This document shows positions 4,632 to 30,221 of a DNA stretch of 64,000 nt, piece by piece. The position numbers were made by a program, and so were the translations under genes. Origin of the DNA: Deinococcales bacterium (GTDB lineage: Bacteria > Deinococcota > Deinococci > Deinococcales > JAAFIG01). The stretch is taken from positions 17,844 through 81,843 of the forward strand of contig JAYWGM010000061.1 in the NCBI GenBank assembly GCA_043778225.1, in the 5' to 3' direction. The notes under the pieces were generated by a model, which searched no databases, was not told where the DNA came from, and saw only the letters and a program-made list of their open reading frames with translations. Within the stretch, counting starts at the first letter, position 1. Each line of letters starts with the position of its first letter.

Positions 4632-5038
4632 CTAGGACGGTGTTTATAGATGCTGCTTTTTTAGTATCGTTGATTAATCCTCGAGACCAAAATTATCAAA
4701 AGGCTAGGGATGCTCTGCAAAGTGTACAACGAACGCAATTGGTGACAACTGATGCTGTTCTGACCGAAGTGCTTAATTATTATTCTGAGCGAGGCGATTA
4801 CTTACGCAAAGAGGCACTGAATTTGGTCAAAGCCATTATGAATCGTGAGGATGTCAATTTTCTTTATCATGGTAAATACTGGTTTTATCTTGGCTTAGAA
4901 CGATTCGAGGATAGGGCAGACAAAGGATACAGCTTAACCGACTGTATCAGCATGGTGATTATGGAAAGCGATGGAATTCAAGAGGTTTTGACTTCGGATA
5001 AGCACTTTGTGCAAGCTGGTTTTACGATTTTGATGTGA
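4628..5038 (+). CDS. vapC: PIN-domain toxin (VapC family ribonuclease)
   Basis: VFIDAAFL, VLTEV, YSLTDCIS, LTSDKHF..AGF acidic PIN motifs. Confidence 0.9.
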   Translation: MTRTVFIDAAFLVSLINPRDQNYQKARDALQSVQRTQLVTTDAVLTEVLNYYSERGDYLRKEALNLVKAIMNREDVNFLYHGKYWFYLGLERFEDRADKGYSLTDCISMVIMESDGIQEVLTSDKHFVQAGFTILM

Positions 5039-5064
5039 TTGATTCACCACAGCCTACCCTAGTT

Positions 5065-6345
5065 CTATGGGTACAACCCACGCAAGGCTCGAGCCTCGAG
5101 AACCCGTGTACAAGCCACAATAAAGGTGGCGGTTCGCATCGTCACGTTTTTGTCTTGGGCAACATCCCAGATGCCTTTGAAGGCTTCGACCATGATTTTC
5201 TCGAGCCGCTTGTTGATTTCGTCTTCAGTCCAGAAAAAACTGCTAAAATCCTGCACCCATTCAAAGTACGAAACTGTCACGCCACCCGCGTTTGCCAGCA
5301 CATCTGGCACAACCACAATGCCACGTTCGCGCAGGGCATCGTCGGCGGCTGGGGTGGTTGGTCCGTTTGCACCCTCGACCACAATTCGGGTTTTAATTTG
5401 TTGCACGTTGTCCAGAGTAATCTGCTTCTCGAGCGCGGCTGGAATCAAGAACTCGGTCTCGACACCCCAAAAATCGTTTTTAGCGATTACTTCGCACTTG
5501 GGGTAGGCGGTTACGTCTGGATTTTCTTTGATAAACTCGAGCAAGTCGTGTGGGTTAATCCCATCGCCGTTAAAAATCGTGCCGGACACATCTTGAATCG
5601 CCACAATTTTTGCGCCGTGGTCATGGAAAATTCTTGCGCTGGCATTGCCGACATTGCCAAAGCCTTGAATCGTGACTCGAGAACCCTGAATTTCTAAACC
5701 GATGCGCTTGGCAGCTTCGCGCCCAGTCACAAAAACGCCACGCCCTGTGGCATCGCGCCGCCCAAGGCTGCCGCCTAAAGCAATTGGCTTGCCAGTCACG
5801 ACACCAGTGGCGGTGCGCCCTTGGTTCATGCTGTAGGTGTCCATCATCCATGCCATCGTTAATTCGTTGGTGTTGACATCTGGGGCGGGAATGTCTTTGT
5901 CTGGTCCGATGATAAAATTGATTTCCGAAGTATAACGCCGTGTCATTTTCTCGAGTTCACCGCGTGAAAGTTTGCGTGGGTCTACCCGAATGCCACCTTT
6001 CGCGCCACCATATGGCAAATTGACCGCCGCATTTTTAACCGTCATCCAAGCACTGAGTGCCATCACTTCGGATAAGGTCACATCTTGGTGATAGCGCACC
6101 CCACCCTTGCCGGGTCCGCGGCTCGAGTTGTGCTGCACCCGATAACCTTCAAAATGAGCAATGCTGCCATCATCGAGTTGAATTGGTACATCCACAATTA
6201 AAATGCGCTTTGGGCGCTTGAGGGTTTCGACCCAGTAGGCAAGTTTACCCAAGTACGGCGTAACCCTATCAACTTGCTCGAGGTAAATTTCCCACGGTCC
6301 GAGGTTATCGTGATTTAAGTAAGAAGGAACTTCGTGTTGGTGCAT
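5065..6345 (-). CDS. gdhB: Glu/Leu/Phe/Val dehydrogenase, glutamate dehydrogenase (likely main catalytic subunit)
   Basis: [43 protein letters not shown]; start at ATG 6345 after a GGAG RBS. Confidence 0.92.
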
Positions 6346-7840: not shown

Positions 7841-10519
7841 CTAGCCACTGCGTGGTGGTTTTAAGCGCCCCAGTAAATCCAAAGCTGCTACGGGCTTAGA
7901 AAAATAATAGCCTTGGGAACGATCAACTGCTAAGTCGCGCAATGCTAAAAACTGGGCTTTGGTTTCGACACCTTCGGCTACAACGCTCATCCCGACATGA
8001 CGTGCCAACATGATGATTAGTTTAACCATGGACCAGCCCGAATCATTTGGCTCGAGGTGCGAAACAAAACTGCGGTCTATTTTTAAGGAATTAACGGGTA
8101 ATTTTTGTAGATACGCCAGACTCGAGTAACCGGTGCCAAAATCGTCTATCGCAGTTTGAATCCCTTGGGCTTGCAAGCGCCGCAAACGCTCGACTGCTAA
8201 ATCGGTGTCGTTCATTAAAGCACTTTCGGTAATCTCGAGTTCAAGCGCTTTAGGGTCAAATTGCGTTTCGCGCAGTACCCTAGAAACGGTGTCCGAAAAA
8301 TCGGAGCGCATCAGTTGCTGCACATCGATATTGACTGCCAAAGCAACATTCAAACCATCGCGCCGCCATTCGGCAACCTCCATACAGGCTTTGCGTAGAA
8401 TCCATTCGCCCATCGGAACAATCAGACCAGACTCGAGCGCCACGGGTAAAAAGCGTCCGGGCGCGACTAAACCTTCTTGCGGGTGCTGCCAATACAAGAG
8501 CGCCTCGACCACAATCACCTGTTGGGCAGCATTGACTTGGGGCTGATAACGCACCACAAATTCGTTGCGCTCGAGGGCTTTGCGTAAAGAAACCTCTAAA
8601 TCTAAGCGCTCCTTCGAGGCTTTATTGAGGGCTGGGTCAAAGCGCTTAAAAGCGCCCTTACCGCCACGTTTAACGCTGTTCATGGCAGCATCGGCATTGC
8701 GTAACAAAAGGTTGGCACTCGTGCCATCGTCTGGGAAAATGGCTGCCCCAATGCTGGCGGACAAAAAGAGTTCGACCCCGCGCAAAGAAAGCGGATAGGA
8801 CAAGGCTTTGAGCATTTCTTTTGCCAAGGCTTCGGCTTCGCTCAGTTGCTCAAGATGATGCACCACCAGCGTAAATTCATCGCCGCCTGGACGAGCCAAT
8901 AAATCGCGCGAGGGCAAAATCGTGCGCCAACGGTCGGTTACGGTGCGTAAGACTTCATCGCCAACTTCGTGTCCAAGGGTGTCGTTGATGCGCCGAAAAC
9001 CATCGAGGTCGATTTGCAGTACCGCCAGTTTCCAACCGCGCTGTTGGGCAACTTTAAGGGCTTGCTCGAGGTGACGCTCGACCCCATAGCGGTTGGGTAA
9101 ATTGGTCAGGCTATCGGTGCTGGCTTGGTCATCGAGGCGGTCAATCAAAGTGCTGCGTTCAATCACCAGCGTGGCTAAACGTGCCACATTTTCAAAATGC
9201 TCGAGTTGCGAAGGCAAAGGCGCAACACTGCGCGAAAAATGCAGCTCGAGTGCGCCAATCACTGCACCATCGGCTGAGTTAATCGGCACTGCCCAAGAAC
9301 TTGCCACGCCACTCATCAGCATTGCCCTGTCCATATTGACCCAACGCGGGTCATCTTGGATGGCTTCGACCACAGCGGGGACAGCCTCGAGAATCGCATA
9401 AGAAGCCGTGCCATGCCCTAAGCCAATCGGCACGCCATCGAGTAACGAGCGCACCAAGGGTCGCCAATTGGGGGCAACCAACAATGCCAAACGATCGCCT
9501 CGGCGCATAAAGACACCAGCGGTTGCACCAATAAAAATTCGCTCGAGTAAACCAGTCAGGGTTTGCAGGGTTTCGTTTAAGGGTGCGCCTCGCAACGCCA
9601 ACTCGAGTACCCGATTGCGGTAGGCTTCCAAAAGCTCATTGCTTTTGCGCTCGGTAATATCGCGCCGCCACGAAACGCGGTTGGTGATTTGTCCACGCTC
9701 GTTGCGAATTGGCACAATCGAAAGCTGAATCCAAAGCGGCGTGTCGTCTTTGCGGTACTCGATGGTTTCAAATTCGACTGATTTGCCGATTCGTAAATCA
9801 CTCTTGGCACGATGATAAACGTCGGTGTCGCCATATGTACCACGCAACAGACCAGCCGACTGCCCAACCGCTTCCTCGCTAGAAAAGCCCATCAGACTGG
9901 TAAAAGCGGCATTGACAAAAATGATTTTTGAATCCTGTTCATTGCCATCGTCGGAATCGGCAACTTGGCTGATTAAAACACTCTCATCAGCATTGAGGAC
10001 GGCTGATTCAAAAAGCTGTAAGCGCTGGTCAAATTCCGAGAGCGTGGCTTTATCGACGGCTCGAGCTTTGGTTTGTTTGCTTGATTGCTGGCGCAAAAAA
10101 CCATTTTCTAAAGTCGAGGCAATCACCACCGCGAGGCGCTCGAGTTGTTCGACTTGGAGTGGCGAAAGCTGTACGGCTTGGCGGTACATCAGCATCAAAA
10201 CACCCGCCACAGTCCCCGAAAGCATGACTGGCACAGCCGCAATCACCGAAACCGATTGTTGAATCGTGCGCTCTGACCAGTGGGGGTACTGTTGCACCAA
10301 CAAAGGCTCACCGCTTGCCCAAACCCTTCCGGGGACATCAATACCATGCTCGAACGTACCAGCGATTTCAAGCGCCAACCCTCGAGCAAAAACACGCTGC
10401 ATCATCGAGCCAGCCACCACAAAAAGGGCTGTTCCATCGGTCACAAAAACGGAGGTACATAAATCAATAATCGTTTGTAAAGCATCACGATCAGAAGAGA
10501 GCGGTGGCGAAACAGACAT
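7841..10519 (-). CDS. GAF-PAS-GAF-GGDEF-EAL diguanylate cyclase/phosphodiesterase
   Basis: PAS (FVNAAF..LMGFS.EEAVG), DSLTNLPNR, intact GGDEF, EALL, ELEITES, DDFGTGYSSL, EGVET. Confidence 0.93.
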   Translation of the reverse strand: MSVSPPLSSDRDALQTIIDLCTSVFVTDGTALFVVAGSMMQRVFARGLALEIAGTFEHGIDVPGRVWASGEPLLVQQYPHWSERTIQQSVSVIAAVPVMLSGTVAGVLMLMYRQAVQLSPLQVEQLERLAVVIASTLENGFLRQQSSKQTKARAVDKATLSEFDQRLQLFESAVLNADESVLISQVADSDDGNEQDSKIIFVNAAFTSLMGFSSEEAVGQSAGLLRGTYGDTDVYHRAKSDLRIGKSVEFETIEYRKDDTPLWIQLSIVPIRNERGQITNRVSWRRDITERKSNELLEAYRNRVLELALRGAPLNETLQTLTGLLERIFIGATAGVFMRRGDRLALLVAPNWRPLVRSLLDGVPIGLGHGTASYAILEAVPAVVEAIQDDPRWVNMDRAMLMSGVASSWAVPINSADGAVIGALELHFSRSVAPLPSQLEHFENVARLATLVIERSTLIDRLDDQASTDSLTNLPNRYGVERHLEQALKVAQQRGWKLAVLQIDLDGFRRINDTLGHEVGDEVLRTVTDRWRTILPSRDLLARPGGDEFTLVVHHLEQLSEAEALAKEMLKALSYPLSLRGVELFLSASIGAAIFPDDGTSANLLLRNADAAMNSVKRGGKGAFKRFDPALNKASKERLDLEVSLRKALERNEFVVRYQPQVNAAQQVIVVEALLYWQHPQEGLVAPGRFLPVALESGLIVPMGEWILRKACMEVAEWRRDGLNVALAVNIDVQQLMRSDFSDTVSRVLRETQFDPKALELEITESALMNDTDLAVERLRRLQAQGIQTAIDDFGTGYSSLAYLQKLPVNSLKIDRSFVSHLEPNDSGWSMVKLIIMLARHVGMSVVAEGVETKAQFLALRDLAVDRSQGYYFSKPVAALDLLGRLKPPRSG

Positions 10520-11229: not shown

Positions 11230-12396
11230 ATGACCCAAGCCAGAATTACCCGCGTTAGGCTCGAGAATTATAAAAGCATCAAGTTTTGTGATGTCAAACT
11301 CGAGCCTATAACTGTGCTGGTTGGACAGAACGGCAGTGGGAAAAGTAATTTTTTAGATGCCTTAGTGTTCACTCGAGATTTATTACTGCAAAATCTGGAT
11401 TTTGCAATTCAGGAACGTGGTAACTTTTTTGAAATTGCTCGTAAAGAAGGTGTACAACAAGCCCCGAGTTTTTCGGTCTTACTTGAAGTTACAGTTGGTC
11501 AAGAGTGCCTTGCACTGTATTATCAAATTGCATTTGAAGAAAAACCAATCATCAAAGAGCAATACTTGAAGAATGAGCAGGGTGAATATTTATACAAAAT
11601 TGCAGAGAATGATATTTTAATCAACTCGATTCATCTGATAGAGCATCTTTTCACCAGTCACCTTGGTATTTCGGTCAAAAGTGACTCAGATGTCAATGTC
11701 AAGGGCTTGGTGAATGTTTTTTTGCTTTTATTGCAATTTCTAAATCCTATACCAGAACATATGCGTCCACCCCAAAATCCTAATTTTTTTAACTGGTTCA
11801 AAGCTGATGGATCAAATATGGATTCGGTCTATCAAAAACTCGAGCAAGGGCAAGCTCAAAAGGTTAGAAAAATCAAGCACTACTTAGGTCTAGTCAACCC
11901 AGATATTATTGATATTGAAGTGAACAATGTCAGTAATTATCTGCTTGTGGATTTTCTGGGTAAATCATCTCGCTTCAATAAAAGTGCCGCATCAGATGGA
12001 ACGCTAAGTGCATGGGCATTGATAACTGCATTGTTTTATTGTGACGACTTAAAAAACTCAAAGCTACTTGCCGATACAGGTTGTATTCTAATCCTCGAAG
12101 AACCCGAAGCGCATTTATACCCAACGGCATTAGAAATTCTCCTCATTCTGATACGCCAAGTTGTACCAACTGTACAGATTTTATTGTCTACACACAGCCC
12201 AGTTTTACTCGAGAAAATTGAACTTGCTTCTGGTAAAGAAAAAATTTTGGTGGTAGAAACATTTAATGGTGAAACAATCATTGATGAGATAGATACAGCC
12301 AGTCGTAATGTTGTTCACAAAAAACTATTTGACCTCGGCGAACTTTTAACCATGAATCAACTTGAACCAAAAGCAATTGCTGGAAAAGCCCGATGA
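11230..12396 (+). CDS. ABC-type AAA ATPase (AAA_15/AAA_21, SMC/OLD-like)
   Basis: LENYKSI, Walker A VGQNGSGKSN, signature SDGT, Walker B/D-loop LILEEPEAHLYP, H-loop STHSP. Confidence 0.9.
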   Translation: MTQARITRVRLENYKSIKFCDVKLEPITVLVGQNGSGKSNFLDALVFTRDLLLQNLDFAIQERGNFFEIARKEGVQQAPSFSVLLEVTVGQECLALYYQIAFEEKPIIKEQYLKNEQGEYLYKIAENDILINSIHLIEHLFTSHLGISVKSDSDVNVKGLVNVFLLLLQFLNPIPEHMRPPQNPNFFNWFKADGSNMDSVYQKLEQGQAQKVRKIKHYLGLVNPDIIDIEVNNVSNYLLVDFLGKSSRFNKSAASDGTLSAWALITALFYCDDLKNSKLLADTGCILILEEPEAHLYPTALEILLILIRQVVPTVQILLSTHSPVLLEKIELASGKEKILVVETFNGETIIDEIDTASRNVVHKKLFDLGELLTMNQLEPKAIAGKAR

Positions 12397-13001
12397 GTTT
12401 ACTGATTCAACCAATTGTTGAAGGTCAGGGTGAAGTGCTTGCAACTCGAACCTTAATCACTCGAATTGCTGCGACTTTTTGGAATCCTGACAGCTATGTT
12501 GAAGTGCTTCGCCCTATTTTAATTCATCGAACCAAAATTGATATTGCGTCAGAACTAGAAAATCGTATTGAGTTAGCTCGACAAAAAATTCATGCCTCTG
12601 ATTCAAATGGTGGTATTCTTGTTTTGTTTGATAGCGATGATGATTGCCCAGCAACTCTAGCGCCTAAATTGCTTGAGCGAGCTAAGAATGCCTGTATAGA
12701 TGTGCCAATTAGTGTGGTTATGGCGCATCGAGAATATGAAACATGGTTTCTTGCTGCCGCTTCTTCTATTGAAGCACTCAAAAATGCTTTGCCACACCCT
12801 GACCCCGAAAGTAAACGTGGTGCAAAAGAATGGCTATCACGGCATATGACCGACAGTTACGAACCAACAGATTACCAAACCTCATTTACTACACAATTTG
12901 ATTTGCATCTGGCTCGAGAAAATGCGCCTTCGTTTGATAAGCTCTGCCGTGATTTAACCGCTATGCTAACCGAACTTTCTAATACCCCTCCGCCGCCGTG
13001 A
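12393..13001 (+). CDS. DUF4276 family protein (TOPRIM-like)
   Basis: IVEGQGE, VLFDSDDDCP, EYETWFLA, PE.KRGAKEWL, APSFDKLCR; ATGA coupling to the ATPase. Confidence 0.82.
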   Translation: MSLLIQPIVEGQGEVLATRTLITRIAATFWNPDSYVEVLRPILIHRTKIDIASELENRIELARQKIHASDSNGGILVLFDSDDDCPATLAPKLLERAKNACIDVPISVVMAHREYETWFLAAASSIEALKNALPHPDPESKRGAKEWLSRHMTDSYEPTDYQTSFTTQFDLHLARENAPSFDKLCRDLTAMLTELSNTPPPP

Positions 13002-19209: not shown

Positions 19210-20082
19210 ATGACTGAAGACTGGCTAAGTTCATTATCTCGAGCCTCGAGTGCAGTCTTGGCGCAAATTGGGGCAGTGGTCGGACGCGCCCCATTGGAAA
19301 TCATCAATGGGGCAATCAATAAAAAGGCTTTTGAATTGCACAGCAACCTCAAATACGGCTTATTAGAGCGACAAGTGCTGGATTTATATCTTGTGCCAAA
19401 GGCTGTGGCTACACTGGTTTTTGTTCATGGTGGCTATTGGGATGCGGGCAGCAAAGACGAATATCCTTTTGTTGCCGAAAGTCTGTGCCTAGCTGGTTTT
19501 AGTGTCGCGGTGGTCAATTATCGGCTTGCTCCAGATGGCGTTTTTCCACGGATGGTGCAGGATGTGGCTTTAAGCATTCAATGGTTGTTGCGTCAATTGC
19601 CAATTTACGGCATCACCTCGAGCAAATTAGGTTTACTTGGGCATTCGGCAGGAGCGCACATCATTGCGCTGTTGTGTGTCAATCCAATTTATCTCGAGCG
19701 GGTCGGGCTTAACCGCCAAGTAATTAGCGCCAGTGTTGGCATTTCAGGACCTTATGATTTTCTCGAGTGGCTCGAGACCGACCCTCGGGCGCAAAAAGCC
19801 ATGGGCGCACGCGAACAGTGGCTCGAGACCCAACCAGCTTTGATTGCCGATGGCAAAAACCCACCAATGTTGCTGCTGCATGGCGCGAAAGATACCCTGT
19901 GCAGTCCAGCCCACGCGCCGCGCCTTGCCCACGAGATTCGACAACGTGGCGGCGACGTGGACTGGAAAGCCTACGAAAATCTCGATCATTTTAGAATTAT
20001 TGGGGCGTTTTCTAAGTTGCTGCGTTTTCTCGAGCCAAAGGTTTTAGATGATACAGTCGCGTTTTTTAAGTCGCATTTTTAG
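19210..20082 (+). CDS. Alpha/beta hydrolase (BD-FAE/kynurenine formamidase-like esterase)
   Basis: VFVHGGYW, NYRLAP, GHSAG nucleophile, HG.KD, DH. Confidence 0.9.
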   Translation: MTEDWLSSLSRASSAVLAQIGAVVGRAPLEIINGAINKKAFELHSNLKYGLLERQVLDLYLVPKAVATLVFVHGGYWDAGSKDEYPFVAESLCLAGFSVAVVNYRLAPDGVFPRMVQDVALSIQWLLRQLPIYGITSSKLGLLGHSAGAHIIALLCVNPIYLERVGLNRQVISASVGISGPYDFLEWLETDPRAQKAMGAREQWLETQPALIADGKNPPMLLLHGAKDTLCSPAHAPRLAHEIRQRGGDVDWKAYENLDHFRIIGAFSKLLRFLEPKVLDDTVAFFKSHF

Positions 20083-21914
20083 ACTTGTTCAAAGCGTTTA
20101 ATTTTGCCACACGCAATATAGGATTTTCCATCTGGTGCGGTCATCACTTCATCCACCACATAAAGCATTCCATCCTCGCGGATTGAGCGCGGAAAGCGCA
20201 TATTCCAAGTCGGTTCAAAACCATCCGAGACGACTCGAGCGCGGAGTTTACTGCCTTCTTTGACGCATTGAATCAGCACCGCATCGGTCGTGTCCGAAGT
20301 CACTTCGAGGTCGGCGGCGGTGGCTGGGGCGCTGCTGGCTTTACCTGTGCTGACTCGTTTGCTGCGTTGTGGGGCGCTGTAGGTGTCGGCTTCCCCTGCT
20401 CTGACAAGGCGGCTGATTGTGCCAATGGCTCGGTAAAAACTGCCATCGGAGGAAGTCTCGAGTTGCTCGACCACGTACTTGACTCCTTCGGCACGAATCG
20501 CCCGTGGAAACTGAACATTCATGCTTTGGTCGTAAGCTGAATTTAAGACTTTAATTTTTAGTTTGCCATTTTCGCGCACACATTGCACTTCGATACCCGT
20601 GCTGGCTTCGGCAACAACCGCTAAATTGCGTACTTCGTCAGTGGTTTCAATGCCGCGTCCAGCCAAGTCGGCACGGTTGCGGCTCAGTCCTTGGAAGGAT
20701 TGGTCGCGCAGTTCTTTGCGGGTCTCGCTCGAGACATTTTTATTGCCAACTCGAGCCGCAAAATACTCAAGTTGCTCGAGTTCTTCAGCAATTTCAAAGT
20801 TCTCGTGCAGTCCTTGCTGGCGAATCTGGTTCATCACGCCACGCAAGGTTTTTTCGGCTTCTGAGTATTTGTTTTGGTCAGTTTGTTCTAAAGCGGTGTC
20901 TTTGGCTTTGGCAATTTTTAAGCGAGCCAATTCGACCCGAACCCCAGTCGGTGCGGCGGCGGCGGCAGCTTCGATTGTGCCAACTTCGACGGTCACCAGA
21001 ATCTCACCACTGATGCTTTTAATTGCGTCATCTTCGATCGCATCGGCACGAAAACTGGCTTTACAAATCTCGAGCAGACCAGCTTTGTTTAGCTCGGATA
21101 AATCGAGGGTCAAGCCCAACAATTTATCTTCACCATCAAAAATATCGCCCAAGACAAGGCTACCAATGCCGTCTTTTTCCACAAGTTTGGCGGCGCTCAG
21201 TGTGCCGAGTAATTTTGTTGCGCCTTTCATCTCGAGGCTGACCACTAAATTCTGTGCCAAGACCGATTTCATCGTCTCGAGTTCAATCTTAAAAACTTGG
21301 GCGGCATCTTCGGTATTTTGAATAAAGTAAAAATTGCCACTGGCGGCGCGAGCCATGCCAATCAGCAAGTCTTCTTCAAAGCCACTACCAAAGCCAAGGG
21401 TGGTGGTAATAATCCCTTCCTCGAGTTTTTGCATGGCGGTTTTGGTTAAAATTTTCATATCGGTGATGCCTTCGTTGGCATGACCATCGGTCATCAGCAG
21501 CACACGGTTAATGGCTTGTGGGTCGTACTGACTTTTAACGTGCTTGCAGCCTTCGAGCCAGCCACCTGAAAGGTTGGTTGTGCCACCCGCCCGAATACTG
21601 CGAACTTTTTCTTGCAAGGCTTTTGGGTCGGTGGCGAGTTGCGGTGCAATAACAGTAGACACATGATCGTCAAAGGCAACCACACTGATTGTATCGGTCG
21701 GCTCGAGCGCATCTATTACGGCTTGGGCAGCTTTGATTGCATGGCGTAATGCTCCGCCAGCCATCGAACCGCTGCGGTCTATAACCAGCGAGATATTCAG
21801 TCTGCGGCGTGGTTTGGCACTGGCTGGAATGCGAAAGCGCAGCAGCACATCGGTCGCGCCACTCGAGCCAAGCGGCAAGATACGCTGGGAAAAAGCAAAA
21901 TCGGTTTCTATCAT
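20079..21914 (-). CDS. von Willebrand factor A protein (YfbK/CaCC-like) with two tandem ~60-aa C-terminal repeats
   Basis: MIDAS DRSGS, GGTTNL, LMTDG; repeats QCVRENGKLK...QFPRAIR..G.KYVV and QCVKEGSKLR...RFPRSIR..G.LYVV; AAGGAG RBS. Confidence 0.88.
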   Translation of the reverse strand: MIETDFAFSQRILPLGSSGATDVLLRFRIPASAKPRRRLNISLVIDRSGSMAGGALRHAIKAAQAVIDALEPTDTISVVAFDDHVSTVIAPQLATDPKALQEKVRSIRAGGTTNLSGGWLEGCKHVKSQYDPQAINRVLLMTDGHANEGITDMKILTKTAMQKLEEGIITTTLGFGSGFEEDLLIGMARAASGNFYFIQNTEDAAQVFKIELETMKSVLAQNLVVSLEMKGATKLLGTLSAAKLVEKDGIGSLVLGDIFDGEDKLLGLTLDLSELNKAGLLEICKASFRADAIEDDAIKSISGEILVTVEVGTIEAAAAAAPTGVRVELARLKIAKAKDTALEQTDQNKYSEAEKTLRGVMNQIRQQGLHENFEIAEELEQLEYFAARVGNKNVSSETRKELRDQSFQGLSRNRADLAGRGIETTDEVRNLAVVAEASTGIEVQCVRENGKLKIKVLNSAYDQSMNVQFPRAIRAEGVKYVVEQLETSSDGSFYRAIGTISRLVRAGEADTYSAPQRSKRVSTGKASSAPATAADLEVTSDTTDAVLIQCVKEGSKLRARVVSDGFEPTWNMRFPRSIREDGMLYVVDEVMTAPDGKSYIACGKIKRFEQV

Positions 21915-22078
21915 GGTGTTCTCCTTGTTTGGTTTAGTGCAGTATAAGGTCTATCAAGAGTGGAATTTGTGAATTAAGCAACGACTTGCAAAATTTTTGT
22001 TCTGCTGGTATCATAACACATCGCAAGAAAATGCTAGGCTGCGAAATCCGATACGCACCACTCGAGAAAGGAAGACCC

Positions 22079-22381
22079 ATGAAAATCATTCGACACGGCG
22101 ATGTTCTGCTTACACCAATCACCCAACTGCCACGCCATGCCCAAGCCAAAACAGGTGTCACCCTCGCTCGCGGCGAAGTGACGGGGCATAGCCACCGCAT
22201 TCTCGAGGCACACCAAGCCCAGATGTTTAGTGCTGGCACAGATAATTTCCTCGAGATTACCAGCCCCAAAGCCACCCTGGTTCACGAAGAACACCATGCG
22301 ATTGTTCTCGAGCGCGGTTTGTACAAGGTCTGGATGCAGCGCGAATACCGCCCAGACGCAAATCGTTGGGTCGAGGATTAA
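22079..22381 (+). CDS. Small conserved His-motif protein (RHGDV / GEVTGHSH / HEEH / QREY)
   Basis: Motif pattern recalled from small proteins encoded beside DUF6745 genes; AAGGA RBS before ATG 22079. Confidence 0.78.
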   Translation: MKIIRHGDVLLTPITQLPRHAQAKTGVTLARGEVTGHSHRILEAHQAQMFSAGTDNFLEITSPKATLVHEEHHAIVLERGLYKVWMQREYRPDANRWVED

Positions 22382-22384
22382 ATC

Positions 22385-23140
22385 ATGTACGCCATCCTAA
22401 ACCGAGGAGGAATGCGCCAATTTCGCAGCCCAAGCCCAAAACTCGAGACCACACAACCCATACCAGCCCTCGAAGCCCAAAAATTATTATTGGCTGGTCG
22501 TGGTTGGGAAAATATGCGTGTTTTGGGCGCACTCGACTTTGCTAACTCAAGCCTTGATTGGCTACCAGACGGCTTACACTGCGCCAGCTTGAACCTGTCT
22601 AACTGCCCAAATCTAAGCCAAATTCCAGACCGCCTCGAGACTCGTTTTTTGGATATTTCTGGCAATCGGCAAATTACCCAGCTACCCGAAAGCACAGTTA
22701 TTCACAGTGTCCTCGAGCTTGCTAAAAGTGGGCTGTGCGGTTTACCTACTAATCTGCGGGTGCGTTTACACTGGGACGGCGTACCGATAACCGAACGCAT
22801 GGCATTTTACCCAGAAAGCATTTCGGGGCAAGACGTACTGCGCGAAGATAACCTCGAGACTCGGCGTGTTTTGCTTGAGCGTATTGGATACGACCGCTTG
22901 ATGCTCGAAGTTGGCGGTTTAATCCTTGACCGCGACACCGATGCGGGCGGGCAGCGCAAACTGATTCGGATTCCTCTGGACGATGACGAAGACATCATGC
23001 TGGTGGCGGTTTTTTGTCCCAGCACGGCACACCAGTATGTTTTGCGTGTCCCACCTTTTATGCGTTTCTGCCACCAAGCGGTGGCATGGCTGGCTGGCTT
23101 TGAAAATGAGCGCGATTACCAAGTGATGGCAGAAGCCTAA
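22385..23140 (+). CDS. DUF6745-like protein with N-terminal LRR-like repeats
   Basis: LPDGL, LNLSNCPNLSQIP, LDISGN repeats; EDNLETRRVLLERIGY; V.CPST...Y.LRVPP....C.QAVAW..GF. Confidence 0.8.
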   Translation: MYAILNRGGMRQFRSPSPKLETTQPIPALEAQKLLLAGRGWENMRVLGALDFANSSLDWLPDGLHCASLNLSNCPNLSQIPDRLETRFLDISGNRQITQLPESTVIHSVLELAKSGLCGLPTNLRVRLHWDGVPITERMAFYPESISGQDVLREDNLETRRVLLERIGYDRLMLEVGGLILDRDTDAGGQRKLIRIPLDDDEDIMLVAVFCPSTAHQYVLRVPPFMRFCHQAVAWLAGFENERDYQVMAEA

Positions 23141-23415: not shown

Positions 23416-24417
23416 ATGCTCGAGATACCTCCTTTGTACACCTTGCCTTTGGCGTTTTTTACGGCTCGAGCAGGCGACACCCGAAAAGTCAGCCGCGACA
23501 GTTTAGACCAGTTAATTGCCCAGCAAGTGCAGTTTGTGGCAGTTCAGAATTTAGACTGGTCAACGGTGCGGCGCAGTCTTTTTTTTGCCTATCAGCATTT
23601 TCAATATGTTTACCCAAGCACAGTGCAAAATTTATCGCAGCGCCTTTTGGTCAAGCCACAACATAAGTATGGCGGTCAGCAATTGCTCGATTTTAAGTTG
23701 ACAGTCGAGCCAATTGTGCTTGCAACCAAAGTTCAGCACGATGGTTTTGGCAACACCATGCTGCATCTCGAGGTGGCGCACATCAGTCATTGGACCAGTT
23801 TTGAAGTGATGTTTTGTGTTGAAAATACAGCCCAGCCAAGCAACCCAAAAATCTTGAGCCAGCAACTTAGGCAATTTTTCGCCAGTACCCATCTGACCCA
23901 AGCCAACCCTCAGATACTCGAGGTGGCTCGAGATTTACAGCGCCAGTCGAGCAGTCCACTTCATTTTGCCCAAAGGGTTTGTGATTGGGTCTACCAAGCC
24001 ATGAAGTACAAAAATGGAATCACCAATGTTCAGACCACGGCTGCCCAAGCGCTCGAACTTGGGGCTGGGCTTTGCCAAGATTACAGCCATATCATGTTGG
24101 CGATTTGTAAAGCTGGCGGGTTATCAGCCCGCTATGTTTCTGGGCATATGCTCGGTGAGGGCGGCTCTCATGCGTGGGTCGAGGTGCTGCTCGAAAACCA
24201 AATTGGTCAATTGGAAGCCATCGGTTTTGACCCAACCAATGCCCGAAGACCCAATTTGGGCTATACCGTGGTCGCCATTGGGCGTGATTACAACGATGTG
24301 CCACCGACTTCTGGGCGGTTTATTGGAGACTCGGCTGGGGTGCTGCATTTTGAGAAATTTGCCGGTTTACTTGAGCTTGAATTGTTTGATGGGCAGATTA
24401 TCCGTCCAAGGGTTTAG
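23416..24417 (+). CDS. Transglutaminase-like protein (Bact_transglu_N + core)
   Basis: DGFGN, GLCQDYSH catalytic Cys, RYVSG, SHAWVE, GFDPTN, GRDYNDVPP. Confidence 0.9.
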   Translation: MLEIPPLYTLPLAFFTARAGDTRKVSRDSLDQLIAQQVQFVAVQNLDWSTVRRSLFFAYQHFQYVYPSTVQNLSQRLLVKPQHKYGGQQLLDFKLTVEPIVLATKVQHDGFGNTMLHLEVAHISHWTSFEVMFCVENTAQPSNPKILSQQLRQFFASTHLTQANPQILEVARDLQRQSSSPLHFAQRVCDWVYQAMKYKNGITNVQTTAAQALELGAGLCQDYSHIMLAICKAGGLSARYVSGHMLGEGGSHAWVEVLLENQIGQLEAIGFDPTNARRPNLGYTVVAIGRDYNDVPPTSGRFIGDSAGVLHFEKFAGLLELELFDGQIIRPRV

Positions 24418-24454
24418 CACAGCAAAAATTATAAAACTGGTTTACAATAGTGGC

Positions 24455-25414
24455 GTGACCCAACCTAGCAGCGCCATCCCCGGATTTCGTACTCGTTTGC
24501 TTTTAGGAACGGGGCAGACCAGCATTGTTTACTTAGCCGACGATAAAGACGGACGCGAAGTTGCCTTAAAAGTTCCCAGACCAGAAATTCGCAATGACCC
24601 AATTTTGGGCAAGGTTTTTTATAACGAAGTGGTGATGCTTAAAACCCTCGACCACCCCAATGTGGTGCGTTACTTCACTGGTGTGCCGTCGGGTGGTCAT
24701 GCCCATTTGGCAGTCCAGTATTTCCCAGAAGGCGAACTGAACTCAACTCAGATGAGTCTCGAGACGATTTTGGCGATTCTTTTGGATATCGCCAGTGCGC
24801 TCGAGTATTGCCACTCTAAAAAAGTGGTGCATCAAGATGTCAAGCCCAACAACATTTACACCGCCAATGGTCGTGGGTTTTTAGCCGATTTTGGGGCTGC
24901 CTCGAGTGATAAAAACCCCACACCACCCGCCGGAAGCCCTTTTTATATGGCACCAGAGGTTTTTCGTGGCGAACACGGCACGCCAAAATCTGATGTCTAT
25001 AGTTTTTCGGTGATGGCGTATGAACTGCTTGCTAAGCGCCGTCCGATTCTGGGCGAAAGCGTCGAAGAACTCCAGATTGCCCACATGACCAAAATCCCGA
25101 TACCAATCAAAAACATGAGTGCAACTGTGCCGCGTTCTCTAGCCAAACTGATAGACCGTGGTTTATCCAAAGAAGTCGGTTTTCGTCCGATCATGCGCGA
25201 TTATCGGGTCGTCTTAAACGATATTCTGAGTGGTGACACCGTAACTGAAAACGATACCAGTACCCAAGAACAAACCATCGAGATGCCACCGCTACCAGGC
25301 TCAACCGAACCAAGCATGGTCTTTGGACGTGCGCCAAAAACAGCGCCAAAAGCAGCCTCGGAAAAAGCACCTACCAAGCAAGGGATTATCGGTAAACTTT
25401 TTGGGCGCAAATAG
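24455..25414 (+). CDS. Hanks-type Ser/Thr protein kinase (cytoplasmic, non-RD)
   Basis: LGTGQTS, VALK, HQDVKPNN, DFG, YMAPE, DVYS; start GTG 24455 after TACAAT-N6. Confidence 0.9.
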   Translation: MTQPSSAIPGFRTRLLLGTGQTSIVYLADDKDGREVALKVPRPEIRNDPILGKVFYNEVVMLKTLDHPNVVRYFTGVPSGGHAHLAVQYFPEGELNSTQMSLETILAILLDIASALEYCHSKKVVHQDVKPNNIYTANGRGFLADFGAASSDKNPTPPAGSPFYMAPEVFRGEHGTPKSDVYSFSVMAYELLAKRRPILGESVEELQIAHMTKIPIPIKNMSATVPRSLAKLIDRGLSKEVGFRPIMRDYRVVLNDILSGDTVTENDTSTQEQTIEMPPLPGSTEPSMVFGRAPKTAPKAASEKAPTKQGIIGKLFGRK

Positions 25415-28745: not shown

Positions 28746-30221
28746 TTACCAATCACGTTGGCGGTACGAAACGGCTTCTGCCAAATGTGACTCGAGAATA
28801 AACTCCGCGTTTTGTAAGTCGGCAATCGTCCGCGCCACCCGCAATACACGGTCGTAGCCACGACCAGACAAACCCATTTGCTTGGCAGCCGCCCGAATAA
28901 AATTTTCTGGGGCGGTTTCTAAATGGGCGTGTTTGCGTAGCTTTGCGCCCTGCAAAAAAGCATTGGCGGTGGCTTGACGGCGCTGCATTTGTTCTCGAGC
29001 CGCCCAAACTCGAGAACGGATAATGGCGGTGCTTTCGGATTCTGGCGATTTGGTCAGTTCGTCTGGGGAAAGTTTTTGGACATTGACCACCAAATCTATG
29101 CGGTCTAAAAGTGGTCCAGAAATTTTTGCCAAATAACGGCGTTGGGCTGGGTCGGAAGCATCGCGCCAATCACCGCTTGGGCTAGGATTCATGGCGGCAA
29201 TCAGTTGAAAAGCGGCTGGAAAAGTAACACTGGCTCTGGCTCGAGAAATCGTGATTTCGCGGTCTTCAAGTGGTTGGCGCAGGGCTTCTAAGGCATCGCG
29301 GGAGAACTCTGGGAATTCATCCAAAAACAGTATCCCATGATGCGCCAAGCTGACTTCGCCGGGGCGTGGAATCGTCCCGCCGCCAATCAGACCAGCATCG
29401 GAAATCGAATGGTGTGGTGAACGAAAAGGCGCGGTTCGCAACAATCCTTTGGGCATTCGACCAGCCGCTGAGTGAATCCGTGTGACCTCGAGCGCTTCGG
29501 TATTGGAAAGCACCGGACACAAGCCAATCGCACGGCGGGCAATCATCGTTTTACCACTGCCGGGCGGTCCAATCAGCAATAAATTATGGTGTCCAGCCAC
29601 CGCAATCTCGAGGGCGCGACGGGCTTGGGCTTGGGCTTTGATGTCCGCCATATCGAGTAAACTGTTCATATCTGGCACAAGCACTTCGGCAGCGCTTGGC
29701 AAAAGGGTCTGGCGACCCGAGAAATGCTGGACTGCCTCGAGCAAACTGCTGGGCGCAAAAACTTCTATGCCCTCGAGAACTGCCGCTTCACCAGCGTTGG
29801 CGGGGGGCAGCATCACACGGCTGCGTTTTTGTTGCAGCGCTGCTAAGGCAATGTTAATTGCACTCGAGACAGGGCGTACCGTACCATCCAACGCCAATTC
29901 GCCAGCAATCAGGTACTGGCTTAGCACCTCGAGCGGTAAATGCCCTTGGGCAGCCAGCAGCGCCAGCGCTATCGGCAGGTCAAAACTCGAGCCTTCTTTA
30001 CGCACATCGGCAGGCGCTAAATTAACTGTAATCCGCGAGGCGGGAAACTGAAACCCACTGTTTTTAATGGCAGCCCGTACACGGTCGCGGCTTTCTTGAA
30101 CAGCCGCATCGGGTAAACCCACCACCGTAAAATTGGGCAGCCCGTGTGCCACATCCACTTCGATTTCGATGGGAATGGCATTCACGCCAATCACGGCGGC
30201 ACTAAAGGCTTTGGCTAACAA
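28746..30221 (-). CDS. comM: YifB/ComM family Mg-chelatase-like AAA+ ATPase
   Basis: [48 protein letters not shown]. Confidence 0.93.

Follow-up and report, generated by a model that had tools for sequence, protein, structure and literature searches.

A vWA protein gene linked to a small His-motif/DUF6745 gene pair in Deinococcales and cyanobacteria

We analysed a stretch of 64,000 nucleotides from a Deinococcales bacterium (assembly GCA_043778225.1, contig JAYWGM010000061.1; hereafter the window, in which position 1 is the first letter of the stretch) and focused on three adjacent genes within it. One encodes a protein with a von Willebrand factor A (vWA) domain, the second a small protein with clustered histidine motifs, and the third a protein with leucine-rich repeats (LRR) and a DUF6745 domain. 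The results showed that these three genes constitute one conserved, functionally linked set that has been kept in two distant phyla. The small gene and the DUF6745 gene form a core pair that is viable without the vWA gene, while the vWA gene is seldom found without one particular subfamily of this pair. The trio is probably one system, and it may act on DNA.

Linkage of the three genes

Relatives of the small protein were searched for in one genome per species, which yielded 347 loci, and the best 80 of these were studied together with their 6-kb flanks. In 79 of the 80 genome loci, a DUF6745 gene was located downstream of the small gene, adjacent to it and on the same strand. A full two-module vWA gene, for which the N-terminal, middle and C-terminal parts all matched, was present within 6 kb in 49 loci, and an additional vWA fragment was observed at a contig edge in locus L004. 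The vWA gene was divergent and upstream in four complete Deinococcales loci, as in the window, whereas it was convergent and downstream in 45 loci from cyanobacteria and one Trueperaceae genome. Because the orientation differs between these two groups of loci, the association of the vWA gene with the pair must have outlived a rearrangement. Approximately 11 of the 31 loci without a vWA gene were shortened by contig ends. In addition, in 5/5 Nostoc genomes examined whose pair locus lacked the vWA gene, this gene was found elsewhere, at distances of 11 kb to 2.3 Mb. Beyond these three, the 80 loci had no conserved gene family in common, and the flanking genes differed from locus to locus; the first-pass annotation of the window had mentioned STM4015-like/WGR clusters beside the pair, and these were not seen.

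The window is a chromosomal stretch, and the nearest loci in the genome scan come from Deinococcales metagenome-assembled genomes. In the closest relative (L003, 2341-7058), the vWA gene is flanked on both sides by a small-gene/DUF6745 pair. Of the two DUF6745 proteins of this locus, the second is 329 aa long and has an N-terminus similar to that encoded by the viral locus L083.

The joint occurrence of the vWA gene and the pair in other genomes had been set beforehand as a test of the association, and it was borne out both in the 49 loci mentioned above and in two genome samples. Among 251 evenly sampled Deinococcota genomes, the small gene was present in 45 and the two-module vWA gene in 16, and all 16 of the latter also possessed the small gene, on the same contig and within ~3 kb. 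Among 201 Cyanobacteriota genomes, the vWA gene was found in 11, the small gene in 19 and both in 8. The Fisher p-values for co-occurrence were 9e-14 in Deinococcota and 2e-7 in Cyanobacteriota, values that are inflated by shared ancestry among the genomes. The vWA protein became linked to a single bacterial subfamily of the pair: when the small proteins were placed in a quick tree, the 51 that are linked to a vWA gene all fell within one group of 75 rows with an SH-aLRT support of 91, and the small proteins of Deinococcus genomes without the vWA gene clustered with a viral sequence, apart from this group.

Architecture of the three genes and their products

The vWA gene (20079-21914, - strand) was identified as an open reading frame (ORF) encoding 611 aa. 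It lies head to head with the small gene (22079-22381, + strand, 100 aa), and the DUF6745 gene (22385-23140, + strand, 251 aa) follows the small gene after a gap of 3 nt (22382-22384). This gap and a divergent region of about 165 bp had been described in the first-pass annotation, and the latter measures 164 bp (21915-22078). The likely start of the small gene is the ATG at 22079, which is positioned downstream of a GAAAGGAAG-like (Shine-Dalgarno-like) ribosome site; the TTG start listed for this gene, at 21986, lies upstream of it. A single sigma-70-like match was noted in the divergent region (21986-22014, + strand), with a TG before the -10 hexamer, and the number of such matches in the region was not above chance.

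The vWA protein consists, in order, of a vWA domain with its metal ion-dependent adhesion site (MIDAS), a beta-rich region, an acidic-to-neutral helical linker and two C-terminal modules. The vWA domain (21294-21797, - strand; residues 40-207) matched Pfam VWA (PF00092) with an E-value of 1.1e-17 and 65.3 bits, against a cut-off of 23.8. As the first-pass annotation had proposed, the MIDAS is intact: the D-x-S-x-S...T...D signature is complete (D46, S48, S50, T113 and D143) and invariant across 25 orthologues. The best conserved part of the protein is formed by its C-terminal 176 residues, which show 62-69% identity between phyla vs. 53-58% for the vWA part.

The duplication of the C-terminal module, also claimed earlier, was upheld by two comparisons. 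Approximately 25 of 61 ungapped positions, counted by eye, are identical between residues ~445-505 and ~549-609, and in the Atlas model, residues 436-506 and 541-611 match as separate units of ~70 residues. Copy 1 (20400-20597, - strand; residues ~440-505) and copy 2 (20082-20285, - strand; residues ~544-611) are both basic, with isoelectric points (pI) of 9.4 and 8.0 within a protein of pI 5.5, and copy 2 is almost invariant between Deinococcales and cyanobacteria. Neither the isolated modules nor eight stand-alone members matched a Pfam family even at E-values up to 1, and a profile search of the PDB sequences revealed no significant solved relative. An Atlas feature search with the module returned feature scores of at most 0.82 and template modelling (TM) scores by query of at most 0.40, so these rows are leads only.

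A profile of the module region matched 469 representative proteins, 173 of them at E-values up to 1e-10. The module-bearing proteins range from 63 to 1179 aa, and the module is mostly located at the C-terminus. Among the 150 proteins listed of these 469, the 56 long ones were scanned against Pfam; the module was accompanied by a beta-propeller in 30, WGR in 8, BRCT in 4, ATP-dependent DNA ligase in 3, and SAP, DUF2779 (which we take to be a nuclease-like domain), the H1-like HC2 and a RING finger in one each, while 12 of the 56 carried no Pfam family at all. Five of the 56 possess a vWA domain, combined with adenylate cyclase, ADP-ribosyltransferase, BRCT or EF-hands. In the three DNA ligases (P0292, P0309 and P0349), the module precedes the adenylation domain and the OB domain, a position in which one would expect a DNA-binding domain. 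The vWA proteins include P0318 (1051 aa), in which the vWA domain and the module are joined to an NAD:arginine ADP-ribosyltransferase, and P0248 (1179 aa), in which they are joined to a CHASE4 sensor and an adenylate cyclase.

The pI exceeds 8 in 21 of 30 stand-alone members of the module family. The module also provides a link to WGR of another kind than the one mentioned in the first-pass annotation: Deinococcus proteins of ~480-520 aa that combine WGR with a beta-propeller end in one copy of it. The single module of such a WGR protein is 47% identical to module 2 by tblastn and 46% identical when aligned with module 1 by MAFFT. The Deinococcota sample contained 27 module matches of the weak class, from 26 genomes, and in locus L163 a WGR-propeller-module gene (4803-6218, - strand) adjoins mutS. 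Because of the WGR, BRCT, SAP, ligase and H1-like company of the module and its basic charge, the module, a mobile basic domain, probably recognises nucleic acid or DNA damage. PARP4 has been described as combining BRCT, WGR, vWA and ART domains in the portions available of PMC10711553 and PMC12212138, and the fusion of the module elsewhere to WGR, BRCT, vWA and ADP-ribosyltransferase domains resembles this PARP1/PARP4 vocabulary. Unlike these proteins, the trio contains no PARP catalytic domain, and its module has no Pfam family or solved relative.

The small protein is all-beta in its structure model. It matched no Pfam or NCBIfam family, and its match in the phage families was phrog_27831 (E-value 4e-14), which is annotated as of unknown function. 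The protein collection contained 450 relatives, and the 120 that were listed are all named 'hypothetical' and carry no Pfam domain. The two His motifs reported in the first-pass annotation, GHSH (36-39) and HEEH (69-72), are present and invariant across 24 homologues. H37, H39, H69 and H72 are retained in 70/70 viral homologues, and G7, D8, the block GEVTGHSH, H69, E71, H72, V98 and D100 in at least 67 of the 70. The invariant features of the family are D8, GE-x-TGHSH, H-x-E-H and a C-terminal V-x-D. The last of these forms the very end of the protein (V-x-D-COOH, with D100 as the last residue and V at -2) in 80/80 genome and 79/80 viral homologues, the single exception being a viral fragment truncated by a contig end. 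V-x-D stays at the extreme C-terminus even after a disordered insert of ~180 aa (P0396) and in long viral forms, and residues 97-100 have a pLDDT (predicted local distance difference test) below 50 in the model. The tail looks like a tethered docking peptide.

Searches by structure and by sequence were largely uninformative. For the small protein, Foldseek found no match in the PDB at E-values up to 0.001. Profiles A1, A2 and A3 gave nothing significant against the PDB sequences, and a BFVD search returned a single phage relative, itself uncharacterised (TM 0.72), besides weak rudivirus rows, none of them with an assigned function. With VIA-align, 6 of the top 18 rows for the small protein were CULT or Yippee domains. 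In the beta-tent fold, the metal ligands are situated on two CxxC knuckles at hairpin tips, and the modelled small protein appears similar to beta-tent proteins (cereblon CULT, Mis18/Yippee) in being a small all-beta domain whose hairpin tips bear paired putative metal ligands. A zincin reading of HEEHH as an HExxH motif was rejected, since its fifth residue varies. A cupin reading seems doubtful: the G-x4-H-x-H stretch resembles cupin motif 1, but no cupin was present among the Foldseek and VIA-align rows, and the E following this stretch is not conserved. Six proteins were retrieved when fusions involving the small protein were sought. P0394, a small-DUF6745 fusion of 235 aa, is a singleton on a 1.1-kb contig, lacks the C-terminus of the small protein and constitutes weak evidence.

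The third protein matched DUF6745 (PF20530) over residues 129-246 with an E-value of 2.4e-17 and 63.4 bits, against a cut-off of 27. The match covers positions 84-201 of the 206 in the profile, and the N-terminal part is replaced by LRR. The LRR-like repeats mentioned in the first-pass annotation proved to be a short LRR solenoid of the bacterial effector type in the structure model and by VIA-align (22442-22822, + strand; residues 20-146). It is followed by the alpha+beta DUF6745 core, delimited by Pfam and the structure model (22823-23137, + strand; residues 147-251). In 50 diverse members, N156 and E158 are found in 50/50, and R160/R161, E202, VPP 222-224, W235, Y245 and E250 are conserved; the conserved C-terminus noted earlier was confirmed, and the protein ends in a conserved E-x-COOH. 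No catalytic signature built on Cys, His or Ser is conserved. The N-terminal regions vary in kind and in length, from 130 to 488 aa, and between phyla the LRR is 33-42% identical vs. 51-59% for the core. Foldseek revealed no PDB match at E-values up to 0.001, the LRR dominated the VIA-align list, and an Atlas feature search returned solely DUF6745 and LRR clusters. DUF6745 was not mentioned in the literature searched, supplements excepted. The likeness to LRR-NEL type III effectors (IpaH, SspH1) and XopL is one of architecture only, as the C-terminal domain is DUF6745 instead of NEL or the XL-box and there is neither a catalytic Cys nor a secretion context.

The pair in phages and the surroundings of the trio

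The pair was also examined in 80 IMG/VR loci with a homologue of the small protein (26-53% identity). A DUF6745-core profile revealed a same-strand partner in 54 of these 80 viral loci. The partner lies within 400 nt in 49 of them and may stand in either order, being downstream in 27 and upstream in 22; the recurrence of the pair in bacteria and phages, which the first-pass annotation had stated, was thereby confirmed for 79/80 genome loci and at least 49/80 viral loci. Of the 26 partnerless viral loci, 24 (within L085-L162) end within 1.3 kb past the small gene, where a downstream partner would not be visible. Viral assemblies may break inside the DUF6745 gene.

Phages carry the pair in replication or early regions. 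In seven viral loci, the neighbours encode DNA methyltransferases, a primase, a helicase, an integrase, a Sak4-like annealing protein and a resolvase. In Microcystis phage Ma-LMM01, gp175 (the small protein) and gp174 (DUF6745-like) are encoded on one strand with the flanking replication genes, which comprise dUTPase, 3'-5' exonuclease and DNA polymerase genes on one side and uracil-DNA glycosylase and clamp loader genes on the other. Nothing relevant was found in the literature on Ma-LMM01 for gp174 or gp175, supplements excepted. The phage proteins, which belong to phrog_27831 and phrog_31813 and are annotated as hypothetical or unknown, resemble the bacterial pair in that the same two families are adjacent on one strand and in the GE-x-TGHSH, H-x-E-H and terminal V-x-D of the small protein. 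They differ from the trio in having other DUF6745 N-terminal regions, no vWA gene within 5 kb and a placement in replication modules.

In the window, the immediate neighbours of the trio are housekeeping genes (transketolase and MutL). Further downstream, a transglutaminase-like gene (23416-24417, + strand) overlaps, in another frame, a Ser/Thr kinase ORF (24014-25414, + strand) whose kinase domain begins near 24500 and matches the PD-T4-6 and mad6 defence kinases with E-values down to 6e-46. This transglutaminase-like/kinase pair is not kept beside the trio elsewhere, and weak kinase matches were observed in 4/80 genome loci. Two overlapping genes at 11230-13001 (+ strand) match HEC-01, a candidate defence system of PADLOC: an AAA_21 ATPase of 388 aa (HEC-01A, E-value 1.3e-74) and a DUF4276 protein of 202 aa (HEC-01B, E-value 9.8e-63). 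An AAA+ gene of the ChlI/YifB type (28746-30221), 6 kb from the trio, is not conserved at the loci. The window also contains an 892-aa ORF for a GAF-PAS-GAF-GGDEF-EAL signalling protein (7841-10519, - strand) that has no relation to the trio.

Proposed mechanism and alternative explanations

Two known groups of vWA systems were compared with the trio. The TerY-P triad consists of a vWA protein, a PP2C phosphatase and a Ser/Thr kinase; this assignment was rejected because kinase matches at the 80 loci are few and weak, as described above, and no PP2C was found in the window. The vWA-MoxR ternary conflict systems, with their VMAP and iSTAND types, are treated by Kaur et al. 2020 (PMC7159879) and are the described systems closest to the trio. 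As far as the consulted part of that article describes them, the trio shares with these systems a vWA protein that is cytoplasmic, retains its MIDAS and carries a further domain at its C-terminus, components that are genomically tied, cyanobacterial enrichment, a patchy spread and one partner with a diversifying region. However, no MoxR AAA+ ATPase, VMAP or iSTAND component is conserved in the 80 loci, the partners are DUF6745 and a small His-motif protein in which no NTPase domain was found, and the C-terminal domain of the trio's vWA protein looks, from its sequence, like a nucleic-acid binder and not like an effector. Because the MoxR ATPase and the third component are absent, the trio is not a member of the vWA-MoxR ternary systems.

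We propose a mechanism in which a DNA-tethered vWA adaptor docks the pair; as a complete chain, it is put forward tentatively, as plausible rather than probable. First, the two basic C-terminal modules would anchor the vWA protein to DNA or to some other nucleic acid. Second, the MIDAS would dock an extended acidic peptide, for which the V-x-D-COOH tail of the small protein is the best candidate; alternatively, the conserved E-x-COOH end of the DUF6745 protein could be docked. MIDAS sites are described as binding extended peptides in the consulted part of PMC7159879. Third, the small protein would hold a metal between two hairpin tips, one bearing H37/H39 and the other H69/H72, and would work as a heterodimer with the DUF6745 core. 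Fourth, the LRR of the DUF6745 protein would choose a protein target. The outcome would be that a target-recognising DUF6745/His-protein complex is brought to DNA, either in phage-host conflict or in the surveillance of DNA transactions.

A number of observations weigh against this mechanism. The V-x-D tail is equally conserved in phages and in Deinococcus genomes without a nearby vWA gene, so the first receptor of the tail is probably not the vWA protein; it is more probably to be sought within the pair, where the NxExRR face is a candidate, or in a host factor. No ORF from the 80 viral loci was matched by the vWA or C-module hidden Markov models, and 29 of the 45 Deinococcota genomes with the small gene lack the vWA gene. 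Three cyanobacterial genomes possess a diverged two-module vWA protein (49-53% identity) without the small gene or a PF20530 match, which suggests that the vWA protein can act alone; in the two such loci examined, its gene is situated among housekeeping genes. In addition, the C-module is also encoded by genomes that lack the pair, as in the WGR-propeller proteins, and the DNA binding predicted for it is deduced from domain company and charge. Finally, none of the three proteins matched a family of PADLOC-DB v2 at E-values up to 0.01. The first-pass annotation had proposed a three-component sensing/conflict module, of which the linked three-gene set was substantiated, while the sensing or conflict role found no backing among these families.

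Some of the same observations are expected if the pair is an autonomous unit of a metalloprotein and a specificity subunit that serves DNA replication, repair or counter-defence. Under this explanation, the vWA protein would be a loosely coupled DNA-associated factor, tied to one bacterial subfamily as a regulator, for example, or via a common pathway. The absence of the vWA gene from all 80 viral loci and from the 29 Deinococcota genomes, its occurrence without the pair in 3 of the 11 cyanobacterial vWA genomes and the separation of up to 2.3 Mb in some Nostoc are all consistent with it. However, loose coupling is hard to reconcile with a vWA gene within ~3 kb of the pair in every one of the 16 Deinococcota genomes and, although its orientation differs between loci, within 6 kb in 49 of the 80, with the restriction of the vWA-linked pairs to one subfamily, and with the closest relative, in which a pair stands on each side of the vWA gene. 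We regard an autonomous pair, the main rival of the mechanism above, as possible, if somewhat doubtful.

Abortive-infection defence against phages is, in our judgement, unlikely. In such a system, the LRR would sense a phage protein, DUF6745 would be the effector, the small protein would restrain or activate it and the vWA protein would serve as an adaptor, the phage copies of the pair being decoys or counter-measures. The patchy spread of the vWA gene (16/251 Deinococcota genomes) and of the joint set (8/201 Cyanobacteriota genomes) would suit this role, as would the variability of the recognition region relative to the core, the defence-like genes in the window (HEC-01 and the PD-T4-6-like kinase) and the frequency of vWA adaptors in conflict systems that is noted in the part of PMC7159879 consulted. 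However, no PADLOC family matched the trio, no toxic or enzymatic domain could be recognised in it, it directly adjoins housekeeping genes, the kinase nearby is not conserved beyond weak matches at 4/80 loci, and the phage pair resides within replication modules and not in accessory islands.

A role in metal handling, in which the His-cluster protein would be a metal sensor or metallochaperone with the vWA/MIDAS protein as its client, is very improbable. The four invariant His residues with D8, E33 and E71 in the small protein, and the fact that the MIDAS is a metal site, speak for it, but metal transporters or regulators are not conserved nearby in the 80 loci, and neither the placement in phage replication modules nor the variable LRR partner fits. 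That three unrelated genes merely share a mobile island is scarcely credible: the patchy distribution in both phyla would allow it, but the linkage extends across two phyla, two orientations and different flanks with no other common gene, and the co-occurrence is far above chance.

The new elements are the bacterial vWA trio, the V-x-D ending, the mobile C-module and the position of the Ma-LMM01 pair among replication genes. We class the trio as a putative vWA adaptor system that lacks an NTPase and whose partners are undescribed, and it could still prove to be categorically new. In its boldest form, the DNA-tethered adaptor mechanism would describe a new recognition system in which an undescribed tandem nucleic-acid-binding domain on a vWA adaptor anchors a His4-metal protein via V-x-D-COOH, together with a DUF6745 protein whose N-terminus is exchangeable, and in which phages use the same pair at their replication modules; this full statement is unlikely to hold as it stands. 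If it were true, bacteria and phages, as the two opponents in a conflict at replicating DNA, would rely on the same machine. Should a complex underlie the linkage, DUF6745 and its His-motif partner, both widespread in phages and cyanobacteria, would become open to functional study for the first time, and the trio would be an example of a vWA system able to work with no MoxR ATPase, the usual component. A new small domain, a probable nucleic-acid binder that vWA, WGR, BRCT and DNA-ligase proteins have in common, would also be defined. Named orthologues come from Nostoc and Anabaena strains and from a Microcystis phage in culture, so the trio may be testable in cultivable hosts.

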